Source of the DNA: Vulcanimicrobiales bacterium
Lineage (GTDB): Bacteria > Vulcanimicrobiota > Vulcanimicrobiia > Vulcanimicrobiales > Vulcanimicrobiaceae
Direction: 5' to 3'
DNA: 64,000 bases
Assembly: GCA_038231455.1 (NCBI GenBank)
Contig: JBBRLI010000016.1
Location: 1 to 64,000, forward strand
The notes below the pieces were generated by a model. It worked only from the letters and a program-made list of their open reading frames with translations. It did no database searches and was not told where the DNA came from. Shown one piece after another: positions 10,176 to 20,489 of the stretch. The position numbers were made by a program, and so were the translations under genes. The stretch's first letter is position 1; each line of letters starts with the position of its first letter.

Positions 10176-10601
10176 TTAGATTCGCTCCGTAATCGCTTGG
10201 CGCATGCGCGTGTACTGCACGGCAAGCAGTTGGTTCATCGTTTGCGCGTAGCCCGAATTGATCGCGAGCTTCGCCATTTCCGAATCGACGTCAACGTTAT
10301 TGCCGTCGAGGCGTTGCACCGTCAAATCGTCTTTTTGCGTCCAGATTTCAAACGGCTGGGGCGCCTCGGCGCCGCCAATCGCAAAATGCTTCTTGTCCGT
10401 GGCGGCAAGTTCGAGCTGGTTCGGATCGGCATCCGACCCAAGCGACGCGGCCAGCGAATCTTTAAAGCTCACATCCGTCCGATGGTAGAGCGGCGTATTG
10501 ACGTTCGCGATATTGTTCGCGATCACGGCATGGCTTGCGCCCGCCCCATCGACGGCATTCTTGAGTAGGTCGGCGGTCACGCCGAAATTGATCTCGCTCA
10601 A
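10176..10601 (-). CDS. flgB: flagellar proximal rod protein
   Basis: IANNIANVNTP...DVSF and DGNNVDVDSEM. Confidence 0.95.
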   Translation of the reverse strand: MSEINFGVTADLLKNAVDGAGASHAVIANNIANVNTPLYHRTDVSFKDSLAASLGSDADPNQLELAATDKKHFAIGGAEAPQPFEIWTQKDDLTVQRLDGNNVDVDSEMAKLAINSGYAQTMNQLLAVQYTRMRQAITERI

Positions 10602-12509: not shown

Positions 12510-13094
12510 GTGGATTGCTACTATCACAACGCCGTACCGTCGGTCGCGCTGTGCAACGACTGCAAAGAGCACCTGTGCGCGACGTGCCGCGGCGATGAGG
12601 GCATCTGCCCCGGCTGCCGCTTAGCGCAAAAAATCGATAACGCAACGCGCGTCCAGCGCGAGTTGCACGGTGAGGTTCCGTCCCGTTCCCAGCGGCAATA
12701 CGCGCCGCCACCTCCGCCGCAGCCGGGACCGCCCCAGACGCGACCCACGGCGACGGTCGCCGTGCGCACGGAAACGCGCGCGCTCATTGCGCTCGGCTAT
12801 CCCTTCTGGCCGCTCGCGCTCATCGCGCTGCTCGATTCGAAAGCCTCGCCGTTCGTCAAGAAACAAGCCTGGCAATCGCTCGCGTTCAATTTTGGAATGT
12901 ACGCATTCGGATTCGTGCTCCACGCAATTGCTGCGATTCCCGTGCTCGGCTGGTCGGCCTGGCCGCTCTTGCCGTTCGTCGTTCCCTTTGCGTTCGTCGC
13001 AAACGTGATCTACGGATTCAAGACCTGGCAAGGCGAGGACGTGCGCATTCCGATCGTGACCGATCTTGTCGAGGAACGCTTGCCCGCGACCTAA
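12510..13094 (+). CDS. B-box-like Zn finger plus DUF4870/Tic20-like membrane protein
   Basis: CYYH...CNDC...LCATC...CPGC, Pro-rich linker, then TM helices ending GEDVRIP. Confidence 0.75.
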   Translation: MDCYYHNAVPSVALCNDCKEHLCATCRGDEGICPGCRLAQKIDNATRVQRELHGEVPSRSQRQYAPPPPPQPGPPQTRPTATVAVRTETRALIALGYPFWPLALIALLDSKASPFVKKQAWQSLAFNFGMYAFGFVLHAIAAIPVLGWSAWPLLPFVVPFAFVANVIYGFKTWQGEDVRIPIVTDLVEERLPAT

Positions 13095-13097
13095 TCC

Positions 13098-14549
13098 CTA
13101 CGCGGGAACGACTTCGCGATTGTAGCGTTCGAGAAACGCGCGAGCCTCGCATTCGTGATCGAGGATCGGAAGCGGATAATCGGCGCCGCCGAACAGTGGC
13201 AGCGCCATCTGCTTAGCGCGCCGGCCGATCGCAGGATCGAGAATCGCTTGATCCGGAAACGTCGCGATCTCGGGGATCCAGCGCCGCACGTACGTGCCAA
13301 GCGGATCGAAGCGTCGCGCTTGTTTGAGCGGGTTGTAAATGCGCGGATACGCCGCAAGGTCCGCCCCGACACCTGCGACCCACTGCCAATTCCCGGTCGC
13401 AAGCGCCGGTGTATCTTCGGTGAGATAGCGGTCCCATTCATCGCGACCGACCCGCCAGTCGACGCCAAGATCGAAGCACAGAAAAGACGCGGCGATCGCG
13501 CGCACGCGTGGATGCATCCAACCCGTAGCGCGCAGTTCACGAATCCCCGCATCGACGAGCGGAAACCCCGTGCGCCCGCTGCGCCACGCATCGAGGTGGA
13601 CGTGTTTGCGTGCAAAGGTGAAGTCGCGCATCTTCTCTTGCAGCGGCGCCTCTTCGAGCGATTCGTTGTACCAGGCGAGCTGCAAAAAGAAATCTCGCTG
13701 CGCGAGCGACCGCAAAAACAGCTTGAGCGACGTGCGCTCTTCGGAAAGCAAAAACGGATCGGAAGCGCGTTCGCATGCGGCACGAACAACCGTCCGCGCC
13801 GCGATGGTGCCGAACGAGAGATCGGCGGAGAGATGCGAGGTTGCTCGATCGGCGGGGTCGTTGCGCGCGATAGCGTAATGCACGACATCCGATTCCAAAT
13901 ACGCAACGAGTCGCGCGCGAGCGGCGCGTTCACCCACCGCATATGGCAGATCCGCCCGCGACCCGAATTCGAGCGGCTCTGGCAGTACTTCGCTGGTGAT
14001 TTCCACGCTCGCAAGTGTCGCCTTAGGCGCCGCGGCGATCGGCAAGAGCGAACCCCAGCGCTCGTGATACGGAACGAACGCGCGATAGCCCGCACCAGAA
14101 TCGGAGCGCGCCAAAGCCGTATCTTCGGGCGGAATCGCCGGCGAATCGTGAACGGGTCCGGCACGTAGGCCAGCCTCTTCGAGCGTCGATTGCAGATCAC
14201 GATCGGCGCGGACGCTTTTCGCGTCATACGACACGCTCCATACGACCGTTCCGGCGCCCGCGGCGCGCGCGAGCGATCGTAAGATCGTCCCCGGCGACCC
14301 ACGCCGCACGATGAGGCGGCTCCCAGCCGCCCGCAAATCGGCATCGAGCGACTGAACGGCTGCGCAGTAAAACGCAGCACGTCGCGGCGACTGCCGCAGT
14401 CGAGCTGCTGCGATCGGGTCAATCACCAAGGCCGCAACGACATCGCCGTGGCGTGCCGCCTCGGCTAGCCCGGCGTGGTCATAAAGCCGAAGATCGCGCG
14501 TAAACGCGAAGATAGACCGGGCCACACGAATCGCTTCGCTAGCGGGCAA
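13098..14549 (-). CDS. photolyase/cryptochrome family protein (divergent)
   Basis: RDLRLYDH, TSHLSADLSFG, AWRSGRTGFPLVDA, GNWQW and FDPLGTYVRRWIPE. Confidence 0.9.
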   Translation of the reverse strand: MPASEAIRVARSIFAFTRDLRLYDHAGLAEAARHGDVVAALVIDPIAAARLRQSPRRAAFYCAAVQSLDADLRAAGSRLIVRRGSPGTILRSLARAAGAGTVVWSVSYDAKSVRADRDLQSTLEEAGLRAGPVHDSPAIPPEDTALARSDSGAGYRAFVPYHERWGSLLPIAAAPKATLASVEITSEVLPEPLEFGSRADLPYAVGERAARARLVAYLESDVVHYAIARNDPADRATSHLSADLSFGTIAARTVVRAACERASDPFLLSEERTSLKLFLRSLAQRDFFLQLAWYNESLEEAPLQEKMRDFTFARKHVHLDAWRSGRTGFPLVDAGIRELRATGWMHPRVRAIAASFLCFDLGVDWRVGRDEWDRYLTEDTPALATGNWQWVAGVGADLAAYPRIYNPLKQARRFDPLGTYVRRWIPEIATFPDQAILDPAIGRRAKQMALPLFGGADYPLPILDHECEARAFLERYNREVVPA

Positions 14550-15751: not shown

Positions 15752-15817
15752 TGAGCCTGACCCGGTTTCCCGGACACTTCACAAAGGTTGGCGAAGAGCC
15801 GACCCACGAGGTATGTC

Positions 15818-16108
15818 TTGGGAAAACAGCGTCGATCATTCAGTGCCGAGTTTAAGTCCGAGGCCGTGCGGGCCACGATGGTTGGAGATCGCAGCCTGAC
15901 GCAAGTCGCGCGCGATCTGGGGATTAGTGCGTCGCTCTTACAGAACTGGAAGCAGCGAATGCTTGAAGAGAACGAGGATCTTGCCGGCTTGCGATCGGAG
16001 ACCCTGGAGCAAGAAAATCGACGGCTGCGTCGCGAGAATGCGTCGCTACGCGAGGACCGCGAAATCCTAAAAAAAGCGGCCGCGTTCTTTGCGAAGGAAT
16101 CCCGGTGA
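15818..16108 (+). CDS. IS3 transposase OrfA
   Basis: RRSFSAEFKSEAV HTH and EILKKAAAFF; A7G slippery site at 16069-16076 for a -1 frameshift. Confidence 0.92.
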   Translation: MGKQRRSFSAEFKSEAVRATMVGDRSLTQVARDLGISASLLQNWKQRMLEENEDLAGLRSETLEQENRRLRRENASLREDREILKKAAAFFAKESR

Positions 16109-16977
16109 AATACGCATTCATCGAGGAGCAGAGAACGCAGCACCGCGTGAATCGTTTTTGCGCGATACTGAAAGTGTCGCCTGCTGGATTCTACGAGTGG
16201 CGTGGCCGTCCGCGAAGTGCGCGATCGATTGCGGATGAAGCATTGCATGCAGATATTGTCCGACTTCACTCTGCGAGTCATAAGACGTACGGGCGACCGC
16301 GAATTCACGCCGACTTGCGCGACGAGGGTGCTCGCGTCAGCGCAAAACGAATCGCACGATTGATGCAAAACGGCGGTATTCAGGGGATTCGGCCGCGGCG
16401 CTACGTCCATACAACAAACTCGAAGCATCCCAATCCGATTGCGGAAAATATTCTTGCTCGGAATTTTGATCCTCGCGTTATCGGGGGAGTTAATCGCGTG
16501 TGGGCCGGCGACATCACTTACTTGCCCACGCGGGAAGGTTGGCTATACTTAGCAGTAGTGCTTGATTTGGGTTCGCGACGCGTCGTTGGTTGGTCGATGG
16601 CTTCGACGATGCGCGACGACCTCGTGATCGCGGCTCTCGATTCAGCACTCGCAGCACGACGACCGAACGACGGTACGATTTTTCATTCTGATCGCGGCTC
16701 GCAATACGCAAGCGCTGATTTCCGTGCTGTTGCGAAACGACATGGATTGACGCTCAGCATGAGCGCGAAAGGCGACTGCTGGGACAATGCGGTCGTGGAG
16801 AGCTTCTTCGGAACGCTGAAATCTGAATTGGGCGATCCAGTTTGGCCAACGCGAGATGCCGCACGCAGCGCTATTTTCAACTACATCGAAGGCTGGTACA
16901 ATTCCAGACGTCGTCACTCGACGCTCGGCTATGTCAGCCCAATCCAATTCGAGTCGTCGCTGCCGATCGCAGCGTAA
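16105..16977 (+). CDS. IS3 transposase OrfB (DDE/rve)
   Basis: WAGDITY, FHSDRGSQY, DNAVVESFFGTLK and RRHSTLGYVSP. Confidence 0.95.
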   Translation: MKYAFIEEQRTQHRVNRFCAILKVSPAGFYEWRGRPRSARSIADEALHADIVRLHSASHKTYGRPRIHADLRDEGARVSAKRIARLMQNGGIQGIRPRRYVHTTNSKHPNPIAENILARNFDPRVIGGVNRVWAGDITYLPTREGWLYLAVVLDLGSRRVVGWSMASTMRDDLVIAALDSALAARRPNDGTIFHSDRGSQYASADFRAVAKRHGLTLSMSAKGDCWDNAVVESFFGTLKSELGDPVWPTRDAARSAIFNYIEGWYNSRRRHSTLGYVSPIQFESSLPIAA

Positions 16978-17124: not shown

Positions 17125-17559
17125 CTAACGCTCATGATATTGTTGTGGGCGAATTCGACATGGCGCCCTGCCAGGCCCTATTGAGGAACCCGCGATTGGA
17201 TGCCGGCTCTTTACCAACTCAACCAATTTTCTCGACATTCTCTCTTCCCTTTGTTGTTCGACTGATAGACCGTTAAACAAGCAATCATCAGGGAAATAGG
17301 CTTTGTCAGAATAAAACTGCCATTTATTATTTCTCTTGACATACAGGGTTGTAGAGGTTCCGGAACCGTAATCGTTTCCTAAAAGAGCGAGATTGTCGTC
17401 TAGAACAAATGATCGAACAGCGACCGGATTAGGACCCAACGCGAAAAGTCGAGCTGACTCAAGATGGTCCACTATCTCGATATCCTCTTTTGATCCAACG
17501 TCAGATTGACCACAACTCAGAAGAAAAGCGAGGCTCAAAAATACGAGCTTAGTACTCAC
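17125..17559 (-). CDS. hypothetical lipoprotein (candidate immunity protein)
   Basis: MSTKLVFLSLAFLLSC lipobox, low GC, start overlaps the stop of the upstream amidase-like ORF. Confidence 0.7.
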   Translation of the reverse strand: MSTKLVFLSLAFLLSCGQSDVGSKEDIEIVDHLESARLFALGPNPVAVRSFVLDDNLALLGNDYGSGTSTTLYVKRNNKWQFYSDKAYFPDDCLFNGLSVEQQREERMSRKLVELVKSRHPIAGSSIGPGRAPCRIRPQQYHER

Positions 17560-18038
17560 TTTATGCGACCCAATTTTCCCGGCGACAACCGCTGGTTAGT
17601 AGCGTTGGAAACGAATTGTGCCCAAGTAAGCGACTTTGACTCGTTTCCAGTAGATTCAGCAACTACGGTAGCGTGACCACTAGCATCGACGGCTTCAACC
17701 ATTACAACATGTGCGTCGTCAATTTTCCCGTCGCCATTCGTACCTTTCATAAAGAGTATATCGCCAACTTGAAATGCGCTTGAATCGAAACTAAAATCGG
17801 AGACTGTCTCATTTTGTGAAAAGTAGTTGAGCAGGTTACTTGAATTTTCCGCGTCATTCGTCCGAGTCCATGGCGTACGAGAATATTCGTAACCATCCGA
17901 GATCGGGCGACCGAAAGGATCTATTTCGAAAAATGGGGGTGGATCATGCAGATGAAGCTCATTGTTCACTGAACCCTCGAGATCAAGTCCCAGAGCCATT
18001 TTGTACACGTCGTAAATATATTTTGTGCAGTGAACTCC
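17556..18038 (-). pseudogene. 5'-truncated NlpC/P60-superfamily (DUF1287-like) Cys-His amidase domain
   Basis: The frame runs to the IS end: GVHCTKYIYDVYKMALGLDL...NLLNYF...QVGDILFM...HVVMV. Confidence 0.6.
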
Positions 18039-18967
18039 TGGAGTTGACTCGGTTCCGTGGACAGATAGTTATTTGACATCAGGCCGCGTCGGTCATCCGA
18101 CGCACGAGCTGCGTTCGAAGATGATTGGCCATGGCCCATCCAACGACGCGTCGACTGCAAGCATCGAGAACAACGGCAAGATACAGAAAACCTGACCACG
18201 TTGGAATGTACGTGATGTCAGCGACCCAGAGTTGGTCCGGACGTTCGGCAACGAATTTGCGATCGACGAGGTCCGGCGCTGGTCGTGCATTTGGGTTTCG
18301 CACCGTCGTAGTAGTCCATTTGCGGCGCGAAGCACCGTAGATATTGCGTTCTCGCATCAGACGTGCTGCACGTCTATTCGAAATCGCGATCCCGGCATCA
18401 CGTAATTCGGCTTGAATTCGTGGGCGGCCATACGTCGACCGCGAGCCCTTGAAGATCGCTTCGATCCGATCACCTAACAAGAGATCCGCTCGCTTACGCG
18501 CTGAAGGTTCGCGCGATTGCCAAGCATAGAAACCGCTTGTGGTGACGCCCAACGCCTCGCACATCAATGAAGTCGGATACTCTGCCTGATACGCTCGCAC
18601 TAGTCCGAAGATTTCTCCGGTATTATGTTCGTTTCGCGAGCGAACCAGGCCGCGGCTTTTTTTAGGATTTCAGTCTCCATTGTCAGCCGCTTATTTTCAC
18701 GACGCAATCGGGTGAGCTCTTGACGCTCGCTCGTCGTAAGACCATCGTCGCGGCGACCGCCATCGAGATCATCCTGTTTCACCCAGTTCACGATCGTTGT
18801 CGCGAGACGGTAAACTCGCGCGAGAGTTCGCTTAAGCCGCGGCCGGCTCGAGCCAGATCGATAATCTTACGCCGAAACTCCGGCGGATAGGACCGAGGGG
18901 ATTGCTTGGCCATGGTGGACTCTTTCTCCGTAAGTCGGAAAGTGTCCACGAGACCGAGTCAACTCCA
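18039..18967 (-). mobile_element. degenerate IS3-family element (929 bp, internal deletion)
   Basis: IRs TGGAGTTGACTCGGTTCCGTGGACA and TGTCCACGAGACCGAGTCAACTCCA match 23/25. OrfA (ATG 18913, MAKQSPRSYPPEFRRK) is frameshifted near 18795. OrfB (18079-18600) stops after the first catalytic Asp region. No target duplication. Confidence 0.92.
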
Positions 18968-18999: not shown

Positions 19000-19404
19000 C
19001 TACAAGGACTGGACGTATGCGGCGACGTCCTCGACGTCTTTCTCGCTCAGCGGAGACGGATACAGCTTCGGCATCGGTGCTTGCGGATTTTTGATCCACG
19101 CGACTGTTGCGGCCATATTCTTTTTCTTCTTCTCGCCGAGCAAGGCCGGGCCCACGCCGCCTTTGGCGCCGCCTGCACCGTGACACTGTGCGCAGTTCGC
19201 GGCGAAGATCGTCTTGCCGTGGGCCGAATCGCCCGACATGGCGGCGCTCATCGAGCCACCGGCGGGTGCCGCTGCCACCGACGGAGCGGCAGTTGCCGCT
19301 GCCGGATTGGTGGTCGTTGTGGTCGTGGTGTCGGTGCCCTTGCTGCAACCGGCCATCACGAGGCCCGCAACGGCCACGGTTATTAGCGCCAGACGTGTGT
19401 TCAC
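19000..19404 (-). CDS. lipoprotein monoheme cytochrome c (paralog 1)
   Basis: MAGC lipobox, Thr/Ala linker, CAQCH and distal PMP Met. Confidence 0.9.
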   Translation of the reverse strand: MNTRLALITVAVAGLVMAGCSKGTDTTTTTTTNPAAATAAPSVAAAPAGGSMSAAMSGDSAHGKTIFAANCAQCHGAGGAKGGVGPALLGEKKKKNMAATVAWIKNPQAPMPKLYPSPLSEKDVEDVAAYVQSL

Positions 19405-19515: not shown

Positions 19516-19908
19516 CTAGAGTGCCTGAACGTACGCAGCGACGTCGACGACCTCTTTTTCGGAAAGCGTCCCGGGATAGTATTTGGGCATCGGCGGTTGC
19601 GGATTTTTGATCCACGCGACGGTCGCCGCCATGTTCTTCTTCTTGTGTTCGCCGATCAGCACCGGGAACACGCCGCCTTTCGTGCCGGCACCGCCGACGC
19701 CGTGACACTCCGCGCAATTTGCGGCGAAGATCGCTTTTCCGTGGACCGCATCGCCGCTCACGACCGCGGCGGCAGGGCGCGCTGCCGAGGCACTTGCCGC
19801 GGGCGCCGTCGCAGTCGCGGTTGTCGTGGAGGTCGTCGTATCACTGCCCTTGGCGCAGCCAGCAATCAGCAGGGCGCCGGTCAATCCAACGATGGGAAGC
19901 GCGTTCAC
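19516..19908 (-). CDS. lipoprotein monoheme cytochrome c (paralog 2)
   Basis: GTG 19908 after AAGGAG; IAGC lipobox, CAECH and PMP. Confidence 0.9.
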   Translation of the reverse strand: MNALPIVGLTGALLIAGCAKGSDTTTSTTTATATAPAASASAARPAAAVVSGDAVHGKAIFAANCAECHGVGGAGTKGGVFPVLIGEHKKKNMAATVAWIKNPQPPMPKYYPGTLSEKEVVDVAAYVQAL

Positions 19909-19997
19909 GAGGTTCTCCTTCACACGGGATGGCGGGCAATCCGGGCGTTCGACAATTCGAGGCGGGACTTCGGATGCCCTCACCAAACAGAGCAAGC

Positions 19998-20489
19998 GTG
20001 AGTCGCGTTTTCATTCGATTTGCATTGCCGCGCGATGCAGCCCGACTAGTCGCCGACGGAATATTTACTTCCCCGCCGCCGGCGACCGAAACCTGGGAGG
20101 CCCGCATCGCGAAATGGCTCGCCGAGCAGCAGGCGGGTCGCCGCATCATGCTCATCGCCGAGGACGCAAGCGGCCTGCTCGGGACCGTCCAGTTGGTCTT
20201 CAAATTCCCGGCCGGCTATAACGATCCCGAAGCGGCAAACGGGATGGACATCGCGATGGTCGAGTCGCTGCGCACGCGCCATGACGCCTCGCCGCTGATC
20301 GCCACCCAGCTGATCACCGACGTGCAAGTGCTCGCCAAGAAACGCAATATCAAAACGATTACGTTTATCGTTCCGATGAGCAACAACTCCGGCATCAATC
20401 AAGTCAAGTCGTGGGGCTTCCAAGAATTCCGCATCATGCCCGAGGGCGGCAAGATGCTCGCCTTCTTCCGAAAATCGATCGACGACTGA
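19998..20489 (+). CDS. GNAT-fold-like hypothetical protein
   Basis: GTG 19998 gives MSRVFIRFA...MLIAED...GTVQL...KSWGF, a GNAT-like pattern. Confidence 0.6.
   Translation: MSRVFIRFALPRDAARLVADGIFTSPPPATETWEARIAKWLAEQQAGRRIMLIAEDASGLLGTVQLVFKFPAGYNDPEAANGMDIAMVESLRTRHDASPLIATQLITDVQVLAKKRNIKTITFIVPMSNNSGINQVKSWGFQEFRIMPEGGKMLAFFRKSIDD

Follow-up and report, generated by a model that had tools for sequence, protein, structure and literature searches.

Gene, domains and fold

The window, by which we mean the whole 64,000-nucleotide stretch of contig JBBRLI010000016.1 analysed here, carries on its minus strand a photolyase-like gene at 13098-14549, 483 codons long when counted from a TTG. The reading frame is open throughout, as the preliminary description of this DNA had said. 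A GTG at 14525 is the likelier start and yields a protein of 475 amino acids; it is also the start in an orthologue from the same genus and in many homologues. Residue numbers are counted from the TTG at 14549.

13098-14525, minus strand: photolyase-like gene, encoding a photolyase-fold protein of 475 amino acids from the likely GTG start
14049-14504, minus strand: N-terminal alpha/beta (antenna-type) domain, PF00875, residues 16-167
13119-13718, minus strand: FAD-binding-type helical domain, PF03441, residues 278-477

The two Pfam domains and the two-domain fold place the protein in the cryptochrome/photolyase family. It is about 30% identical to the class I CPD photolyases of E. coli (1dnp) and Anacystis nidulans (1owl/1qnf), with which it has the two-domain fold in common; the AlphaFold2 model, with a mean pLDDT of 88, matches 1qnf with a Foldseek TM of 0.89 and 1owm with a Z of 43.4 and an rmsd of 2.1 over 460 aligned residues. 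The best NCBIfam models score far below their cut-offs (TIGR03556, 263 versus 885 bits; PRK10674, 232 versus 506), a weak test given that the genome's own canonical photolyase also falls short (407 of 506). A search of the ESM Atlas with the protein returned generic photolyase clusters only. We also looked for longer, fused forms and set them aside; the evidence is weak, a single match among 8000 candidates (P0272) that keeps the canonical motifs and looks frameshifted.

Substrate pocket, flavin site and tryptophan triad

The available text of PMC8476157 assigns residues E274, W277, N341, M345 and W384 of CPD photolyase to substrate binding, R344, D372, A377, N378 and G381 to the FAD site, and W306, W359 and W382 to the Trp triad. 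We mapped these positions onto the protein with a HMMER alignment to the E. coli enzyme (1dnp):

13698-13709, minus strand: S281 and Q284, replacing E274 and W277 of the CPD pocket (alignment and clade tally)
13614-13616, minus strand: F312, replacing the terminal triad residue W306 (alignment and clade tally)
13497-13511, minus strand: P347 (N341), R348 (R342, kept), R350 (R344, kept) and A351 (M345)
13386-13457, minus strand: W365 (W359, kept), W372 (F366 changed to Trp, clade-specific), E378 (D372), A384 (N378) and W388 (W382, kept)

Four of the five substrate residues are missing, and W384 is kept. The preliminary description had listed the same exchanges in the pocket, together with those of D372, D374 (here T380) and N378; the alignment recovers all of them and rules out a misalignment that hides canonical residues. 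The exchange of D374 is no family trait, Asp being found there in 129 of 230 clade sequences. The set of FAD residues typical of classes I and III is broken (R344 is kept, D372 is Glu, N378 is Ala), and so is the class I/III triad, in which W306 has become F312. The earlier statement that the triad is retained therefore stands for W359 and W382, two-thirds of it; the third Trp that had been counted, that of DAWRSG (W322), is the equivalent of E. coli W316.

Loss of W306 alone leaves flavin chemistry possible, because short SPL photolyases without this residue repair CPDs (PMC8476157, available text). Tyr or Phe also occupies the position in 10 of 147 comparison photolyases. The changes in the flavin site lie on the isoalloxazine side; on the phosphate side, T237 and L240 are invariant and the T-S-x-L phosphate motif is kept. 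Two of the three families of the clade, f1 and f2, also keep W384 and the Arg-acid pair. Judged from sequence, the retained W359, W382 and T-S-x-L motif and the f1/f2 Arg-acid pair are compatible with a working flavin. In the third family, f3, all seven orthologues inspected are without R344 and show Cys at N378, and several are without D372. Three of them have His or Arg at W384; the Trp at W306 is kept by some and lost by others. These f3 proteins retain W359, W382, the phosphate-side Thr and the C-terminal motif described below.

A conserved clade under purifying selection

The 120 best homologues are 65-94% identical to the protein; where a taxon is named, it is mostly Eremiobacterota. We sorted 383 sequences by identity outside the tested columns, obtaining 235 clade members (a redundant set, mostly from family f1), 147 canonical photolyases for comparison (two of them from genomes marked unpublished) and one unplaced sequence. 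E274, W277, N341, M345 and N378 are each kept in 0 of the 235. The W306 position holds Phe in 218 and Trp in 9; W359 and W382 are present in every clade sequence that covers the site, and F366 is Trp in 229 of 235.

The gene evolves under purifying selection. Compared with L035, an orthologue 93% identical, dN/dS is 0.051 (dN 0.035, dS 0.68), and constraint is strongest in the FAD core (dN 0.003, dS 0.70). Over 1366 pairs with dS below 1 the median dN/dS is 0.29, and 0.14 for the FAD core. The preliminary description had proposed asking whether orthologues share the substitutions under such selection; they do, across all 235 sequences, which rules out private decay of the gene. A quick IQ-TREE tree of 77 sequences puts a branch with an SH-aLRT of 99 between the 24 clade rows and the rest, in keeping with the earlier suggestion of a new type within the family. 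With midpoint rooting, f3 is sister to f1 plus f2 and the clade is separate from the canonical photolyases of the same class.

The clade is a real, conserved and apparently undescribed subfamily. A full-text literature search, largely outside the subscription journals, found no published description of it, and the available text of PMC10140301 does not mention it. Two stretches are specific to the clade and absent from canonical photolyases, residues 303-307 (LQEKM) and an insertion at 265-272 (PFLLxEER); they are candidates for a second partner surface.

Distribution among light-linked genes

A clade profile finds matches at E<=1e-40 in 290 of 296 f1, 4 of 5 f2 and 29 of 30 f3 genomes. Seventeen of these 323 matching genomes have a best E above 1e-120, from fragments or canonical copies. 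Without them about 306 of 331 remain, so that the photolyase-like gene is near-core in one class of Vulcanimicrobiota. In other classes 3 of 69 genomes match the profile; their E of about 1e-103 is what ordinary photolyases give. In a search of 1.84 billion representatives, the degenerate signature appeared in only about 15 of the best 150 matches.

Other light-linked genes are patchy. In a sample of 41 genomes, a canonical CPD photolyase is found in 13, an FeS-BCP in 4 and reaction centres in 5. (Genomes marked unpublished are G020, G022 and G036 in this tally, the 13 including G020 and G036, and twelve in the 331-genome tally.) All five reaction-centre genomes, the phototrophs, have a canonical photolyase beside the photolyase-like gene. 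Judged from this tally, the light-linked genes travel together and the photolyase-like gene travels apart from them. In 19 genomes whose sequence we inspected, it is the only PF03441 match. One relative's canonical photolyase (L018, G012:C12) is split over two frames, by a frameshift or an assembly error.

The host genome of the window has three other PF03441 genes. Among them is a canonical class I CPD photolyase on contig C38 (L001), so that the separate canonical enzyme which the preliminary description had thought worth looking for is indeed present. The others are a divergent full-length member on C12 (L002) and a PF03441-only gene on C1 (L004); a fourth further family member, of FeS-BCP type, lies at C8:101392-102033. 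Two reaction-centre (PF00124) genes at G000:C8:68186-69842 mark the host as an anoxygenic phototroph, as are the four other members of the sample with such genes.

Gene neighbourhood and regulation

The gene belongs to a block found in all three families:

12510-13094, plus strand: convergent DUF4870 gene, a conserved downstream neighbour (68 of 73 loci)
19000-19404 and 19516-19911, minus strand: pair of small cytochrome c genes in tandem, their N-termini lipoprotein-like

The order of the block is cytochrome c, photolyase-like gene, convergent DUF4870 gene and ABC transporter. Among loci with enough flank, a cytochrome c gene lies directly upstream in 68 of 85 and the ABC transporter is present in 63 of 67; in many relatives the stop of one cytochrome c gene abuts the start of the photolyase-like gene. 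In the window, about 4.4 kb that include IS3-type elements lie between them. We read the block as inherited gene order, with DUF4870 as backbone synteny. No conserved DNA-repair, replication or DNA-metabolism neighbour was found among the loci compared.

The inserted stretch is of low GC and holds IS3-type transposase genes (HTH_Tnp_1, rve) at 15788-16977 on the plus strand and 18079-18600 on the minus strand, with two unannotated ORFs at 17125-18008, one with a weak CHAP match. A further conserved neighbour in f1 and f2 (60 of 83 loci), at 19803-20489 on the plus strand, has no Pfam match and looks GNAT-like by eye only.

Flagellar genes do lie about 2.5 kb away, as first noted, flgB being at 10176-10601. 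Of the 62 loci across the class whose flanks are long enough, 37 have flgB within 5.9 kb of the photolyase-like gene; among f3 loci the count is 0 of 7. The adjacency is not class-wide, and the phototaxis link that had been drawn from it loses its footing.

An SOS box, CGAAC-N4-GTTCG, precedes lexA, uvrA and dnaE2 in the host genome. None lies within 900 bp upstream of the photolyase-like gene in 72 of 72 loci, where about 3 would be expected by chance. On these boxless upstream regions we reject SOS regulation of the gene; they suggest constitutive expression and argue against a damage-induced role. A palindrome comparison revealed no motif shared with the photolyase-like gene, and a sigma-70 promoter scan found none. 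The SOS boxes of the host genome (C43:1784-1856, C7:101126, C4:110891 and C4:120941; before lexA, uvrA and dnaE2 and at an ImuB-like gene) outline a LexA regulon for the lineage. The PF03441-only gene L004 has a looser site resembling the SOS box about 70 bp upstream (G000:C1:355736).

A clamp-type motif in the C-terminal loop

The C-terminal part of the protein contains a motif that the preliminary description had missed, Q447-M-A-L-P-L-F453:

13191-13211, minus strand: QMALPLF (residues 447-453), a putative motif for beta-clamp binding, in a loop that is variable and of low model confidence

In the available text of PMC11139829, the clamp-binding consensus is Q-phi-x-[L/M]-[F/L] or Q-phi-x-[L/M]-x-[F/L], with QLSLPL of Hda as an example. 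QMALPL(F) agrees with the hexameric form, the window copy having Met at the aliphatic position. We scored the pattern Q[LIVM]x[LM]x?[FL] and a stricter and a looser version of it. Among 231 clade sequences the motif is in the loop in 198 with L, I or V as phi, in 209 with Met allowed and in 227 under a relaxed pattern; the corresponding counts among 142 comparison photolyases are 0, 0 and 1. Shuffled loops match at 2.2% per sequence. Conservation follows the motif closely; in 81 orthologues Q447 is kept in 80, L450 in 78, L452 in 79 and F453 in 68, and the flanking columns 441-446 and 455-457 are just 23-43% conserved. In the AlphaFold2 model the loop (441-460) has a pLDDT of 53-65, dropping under 50 at 447-449. 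The pattern alone is unspecific, matching 204 of 4476 ORFs in the genome. The host's DinB (QISLF) and DnaE (QVSLF) bear clamp-type motifs as well.

We modelled residues 430-468, a 39-residue piece rather than the whole protein, in complex with the genome's own DnaN, encoded at G000:C4:198392-199504 on the minus strand. The score is 0.63 (0.63, 0.65 and 0.54 in the individual runs) versus 0.01 for the best of three controls; of the solved pairs, 116 of 157 attain the score mark, and of the mismatched pairs 2 of 215; with the alignments used here these counts are only roughly valid. The runs have at least 56% of contacts in common, with a partner pLDDT of at least 45. Peptide-pocket residues of the E. 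coli clamp include T172, G174, H175 and M362, according to the available text of PMC11139829. In our model the confident interface sets residues 446-454 against DnaN 171-176, 244-249, 346-348 and 365-370. This interface corresponds to the peptide pocket of the clamp. The motif may thus fit into the peptide pocket of DnaN; since clamp-peptide complexes have already been solved, the prediction possibly reflects memory of them and speaks for likeness to known ligands, not for binding.

Four of five DNA-backbone contacts are kept as well. The available text of PMC8476157 names R350, N407, Q411, K414 and Q461 in the Anacystis/Synechococcus enzyme; the protein has R348, N406, Q410 and R413, and A469 in place of Q461. 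These residues would be compatible with DNA binding; canonical photolyases conserve them equally, and the fold may be the reason for their retention. The equivalent of R226 is lost in part of the clade (182/230).

Comparison with known proteins

The protein resembles class I photolyases in W359 and W382, R344 and the DNA-backbone contacts, and differs from them in the replacement of E274, W277, N341, M345, N378 and W306, in the Trp at F366 and in the added clamp-type motif. Plant cryptochromes (AtCRY1, 1u3c; ZmCRY1a, 6lz7) have lost the same pocket, including a change to Ser at E274, and their helix LFLKSIGLR resembles LFLRSLAQR of the photolyase-like protein. They have Asp facing FAD N5, where the clade has Ala or Cys; unlike them, the protein has no long C-terminal extension and has lost W306. 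It scores 199 bits against the plant cryptochrome model TIGR02766, whose cut-off is 604, and holds Ala384 at the N5 position. This model ranks third for clade members (195-222 bits, 6 of 6) and first for class III photolyases (376-425 bits, 3 of 3). From this unlike ranking we judge the resemblance to plant cryptochromes probably convergent and do not count it as kinship; the quick tree, built without plant sequences, places the clade outside the class III-like branch. The CRY-DASH model TIGR02765 gives 177 bits against a cut-off of 317, also well short.

Reuse of the photolyase fold without repair has precedent in mammalian CRY1/2, light-independent proteins of the cryptochrome family. The trypanosome photolyase-like chain 7pua_Ff is a distant match only. 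Both are eukaryotic and of separate origin, and we know of no clamp motif in either. Hda and other hexameric beta-clamp ligands (Pol IV, Pol III alpha's C-terminal motif) have Q-phi-x-L-x-L/F in common with the protein and do not share its fold; the very string of the Hda motif, QLSLPL (PMC11139829, available text), occurs in 9 clade members. The SPL/NewPHL short photolyases are also without W306 (PMC8476157, available text). Unlike the clade they have a complete substrate pocket with N378 in place; they are missing the N-terminal domain and are able to repair CPDs.

Possible functions of the protein

The interpretation that we favour, and to which we give about an even chance of being right, is that a photolyase gave up CPD repair and took on a new role as a DNA-associated factor, docked on the clamp and probably independent of light. 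Its ancestor would have been a class I-type CPD photolyase; photorepair would have been lost in the ancestor of the class and the protein retained for another job. The hexameric motif in the flexible C-terminal loop would tether it to DnaN, the beta sliding clamp, and the basic face for DNA contact that it retains would bind DNA at the replication fork or behind it. Constitutive and independent of light, the protein may act there as a sensor of lesions or single-stranded gaps, or as an adaptor for them, and would pass them on to repair or translesion proteins. In favour of the clamp-docked factor, flavin-side residues erode further in f3 while the motif stays, and the gene is near-core while canonical photolyase, FeS-BCP and reaction centres are patchy; the missing DNA-metabolism neighbour counts against it. 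The earlier view that the protein is probably not a repair enzyme is strengthened by the fixed substitutions, the purifying selection and the separate canonical L001. The companion idea, a flavin photoreceptor whose triad is intact, is made less likely by the Phe at W306 and the loss of R344 in f3, and by the retention of the gene regardless of phototrophy.

Clamp docking is common to the favoured reading and to two of its alternatives. One is a flavin-gated clamp regulator, in which FAD is bound and the loop is exposed or hidden depending on light or redox state, making a cryptochrome with the replication clamp as its output. We consider this unlikely, for all that it would account for the invariant W359 and W382 equivalents, the new Trp at F366, the invariant T237 and L240, the strong constraint on the FAD core, the cytochrome c gene upstream and, in f3, the Cys at N378 and the W306 kept by some members; cryptochromes reuse the flavin pocket and release their tails upon reduction (PMC11362059, available text). 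It has to contend with Phe at W306 in most of the clade, Ala at N378, the loss of E274 and N341, the loss of R344 in all seven f3 orthologues and the persistence of the gene in genomes without reaction centres or any other photolyase. That it amounts to a class-wide bacterial cryptochrome wired to the replisome, with the flavin kept and a light- or redox-gated loop switching clamp occupancy, we regard as a rather improbable outcome; if true, it would switch replication or fork repair across a whole bacterial class. We are more doubtful still of a clamp-tethered repair enzyme, whose reduced flavin would repair CPDs at a low rate, or another lesion, with the clamp bringing the protein to DNA. 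The 19 inspected genomes with no other PF03441 match, the photo-lyase label in databases, the W384 kept in f1 and f2 and the repair of CPDs by SPL enzymes without W306 (PMC8476157, available text) speak for such an enzyme, whereas four of five substrate residues and N378 are kept in none of the 235 sequences, three f3 orthologues have His or Arg at W384 and a canonical photolyase stands alongside in all five sampled phototrophs.

The other two alternatives do without the clamp. Canonical enzymes have a surface segment at the site of the motif, whose role could accordingly be structural; the protein could then be a nucleotide- or ligand-binding regulator with no clamp link. The commonness of the pattern in ORFs and a neighbourhood made up of other than DNA genes fit this, as does the binding of ATP in the pocket of plant cryptochromes that lost the same residues (PMC11362059, available text). 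We nonetheless hold it to be quite improbable, in view of the invariant Gln and alternating hydrophobics amid poorly conserved flanks in a low-confidence loop, the lack of the motif in 142 comparison photolyases and its placement in the DnaN pocket by the model. Least probable by our reckoning is the idea first suggested, a receptor for blue light that acts on phototaxis by way of the flagellar genes nearby. The proximity of flgB in many loci and the phototrophic host with its reaction-centre genes agree with such a receptor; against it stand the broken triad, the absence of flgB near the f3 loci, a motif that it leaves unexplained, and the 36 of 41 sampled genomes that are without reaction centres and nearly all of which keep the gene. 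We also considered a stand-in for missing mismatch repair and rejected it, the genome having MutS, MutL, two Y-family and two NucS-like matches.

If clamp docking holds true, a photolyase-fold protein would have been recruited to the bacterial replication machinery and be near-core where real photolyases come and go. The cryptochrome/photolyase family would gain a repair-dead subfamily, and the beta clamp a new kind of partner; our full-text literature search, largely outside the subscription journals, found no photolyase-fold clamp ligand. Databases label the clade proteins 'deoxyribodipyrimidine photo-lyase'. Since in many genomes this is the sole photolyase-like gene, database naming has probably led to photoreactivation capacity being over-called in the phylum.
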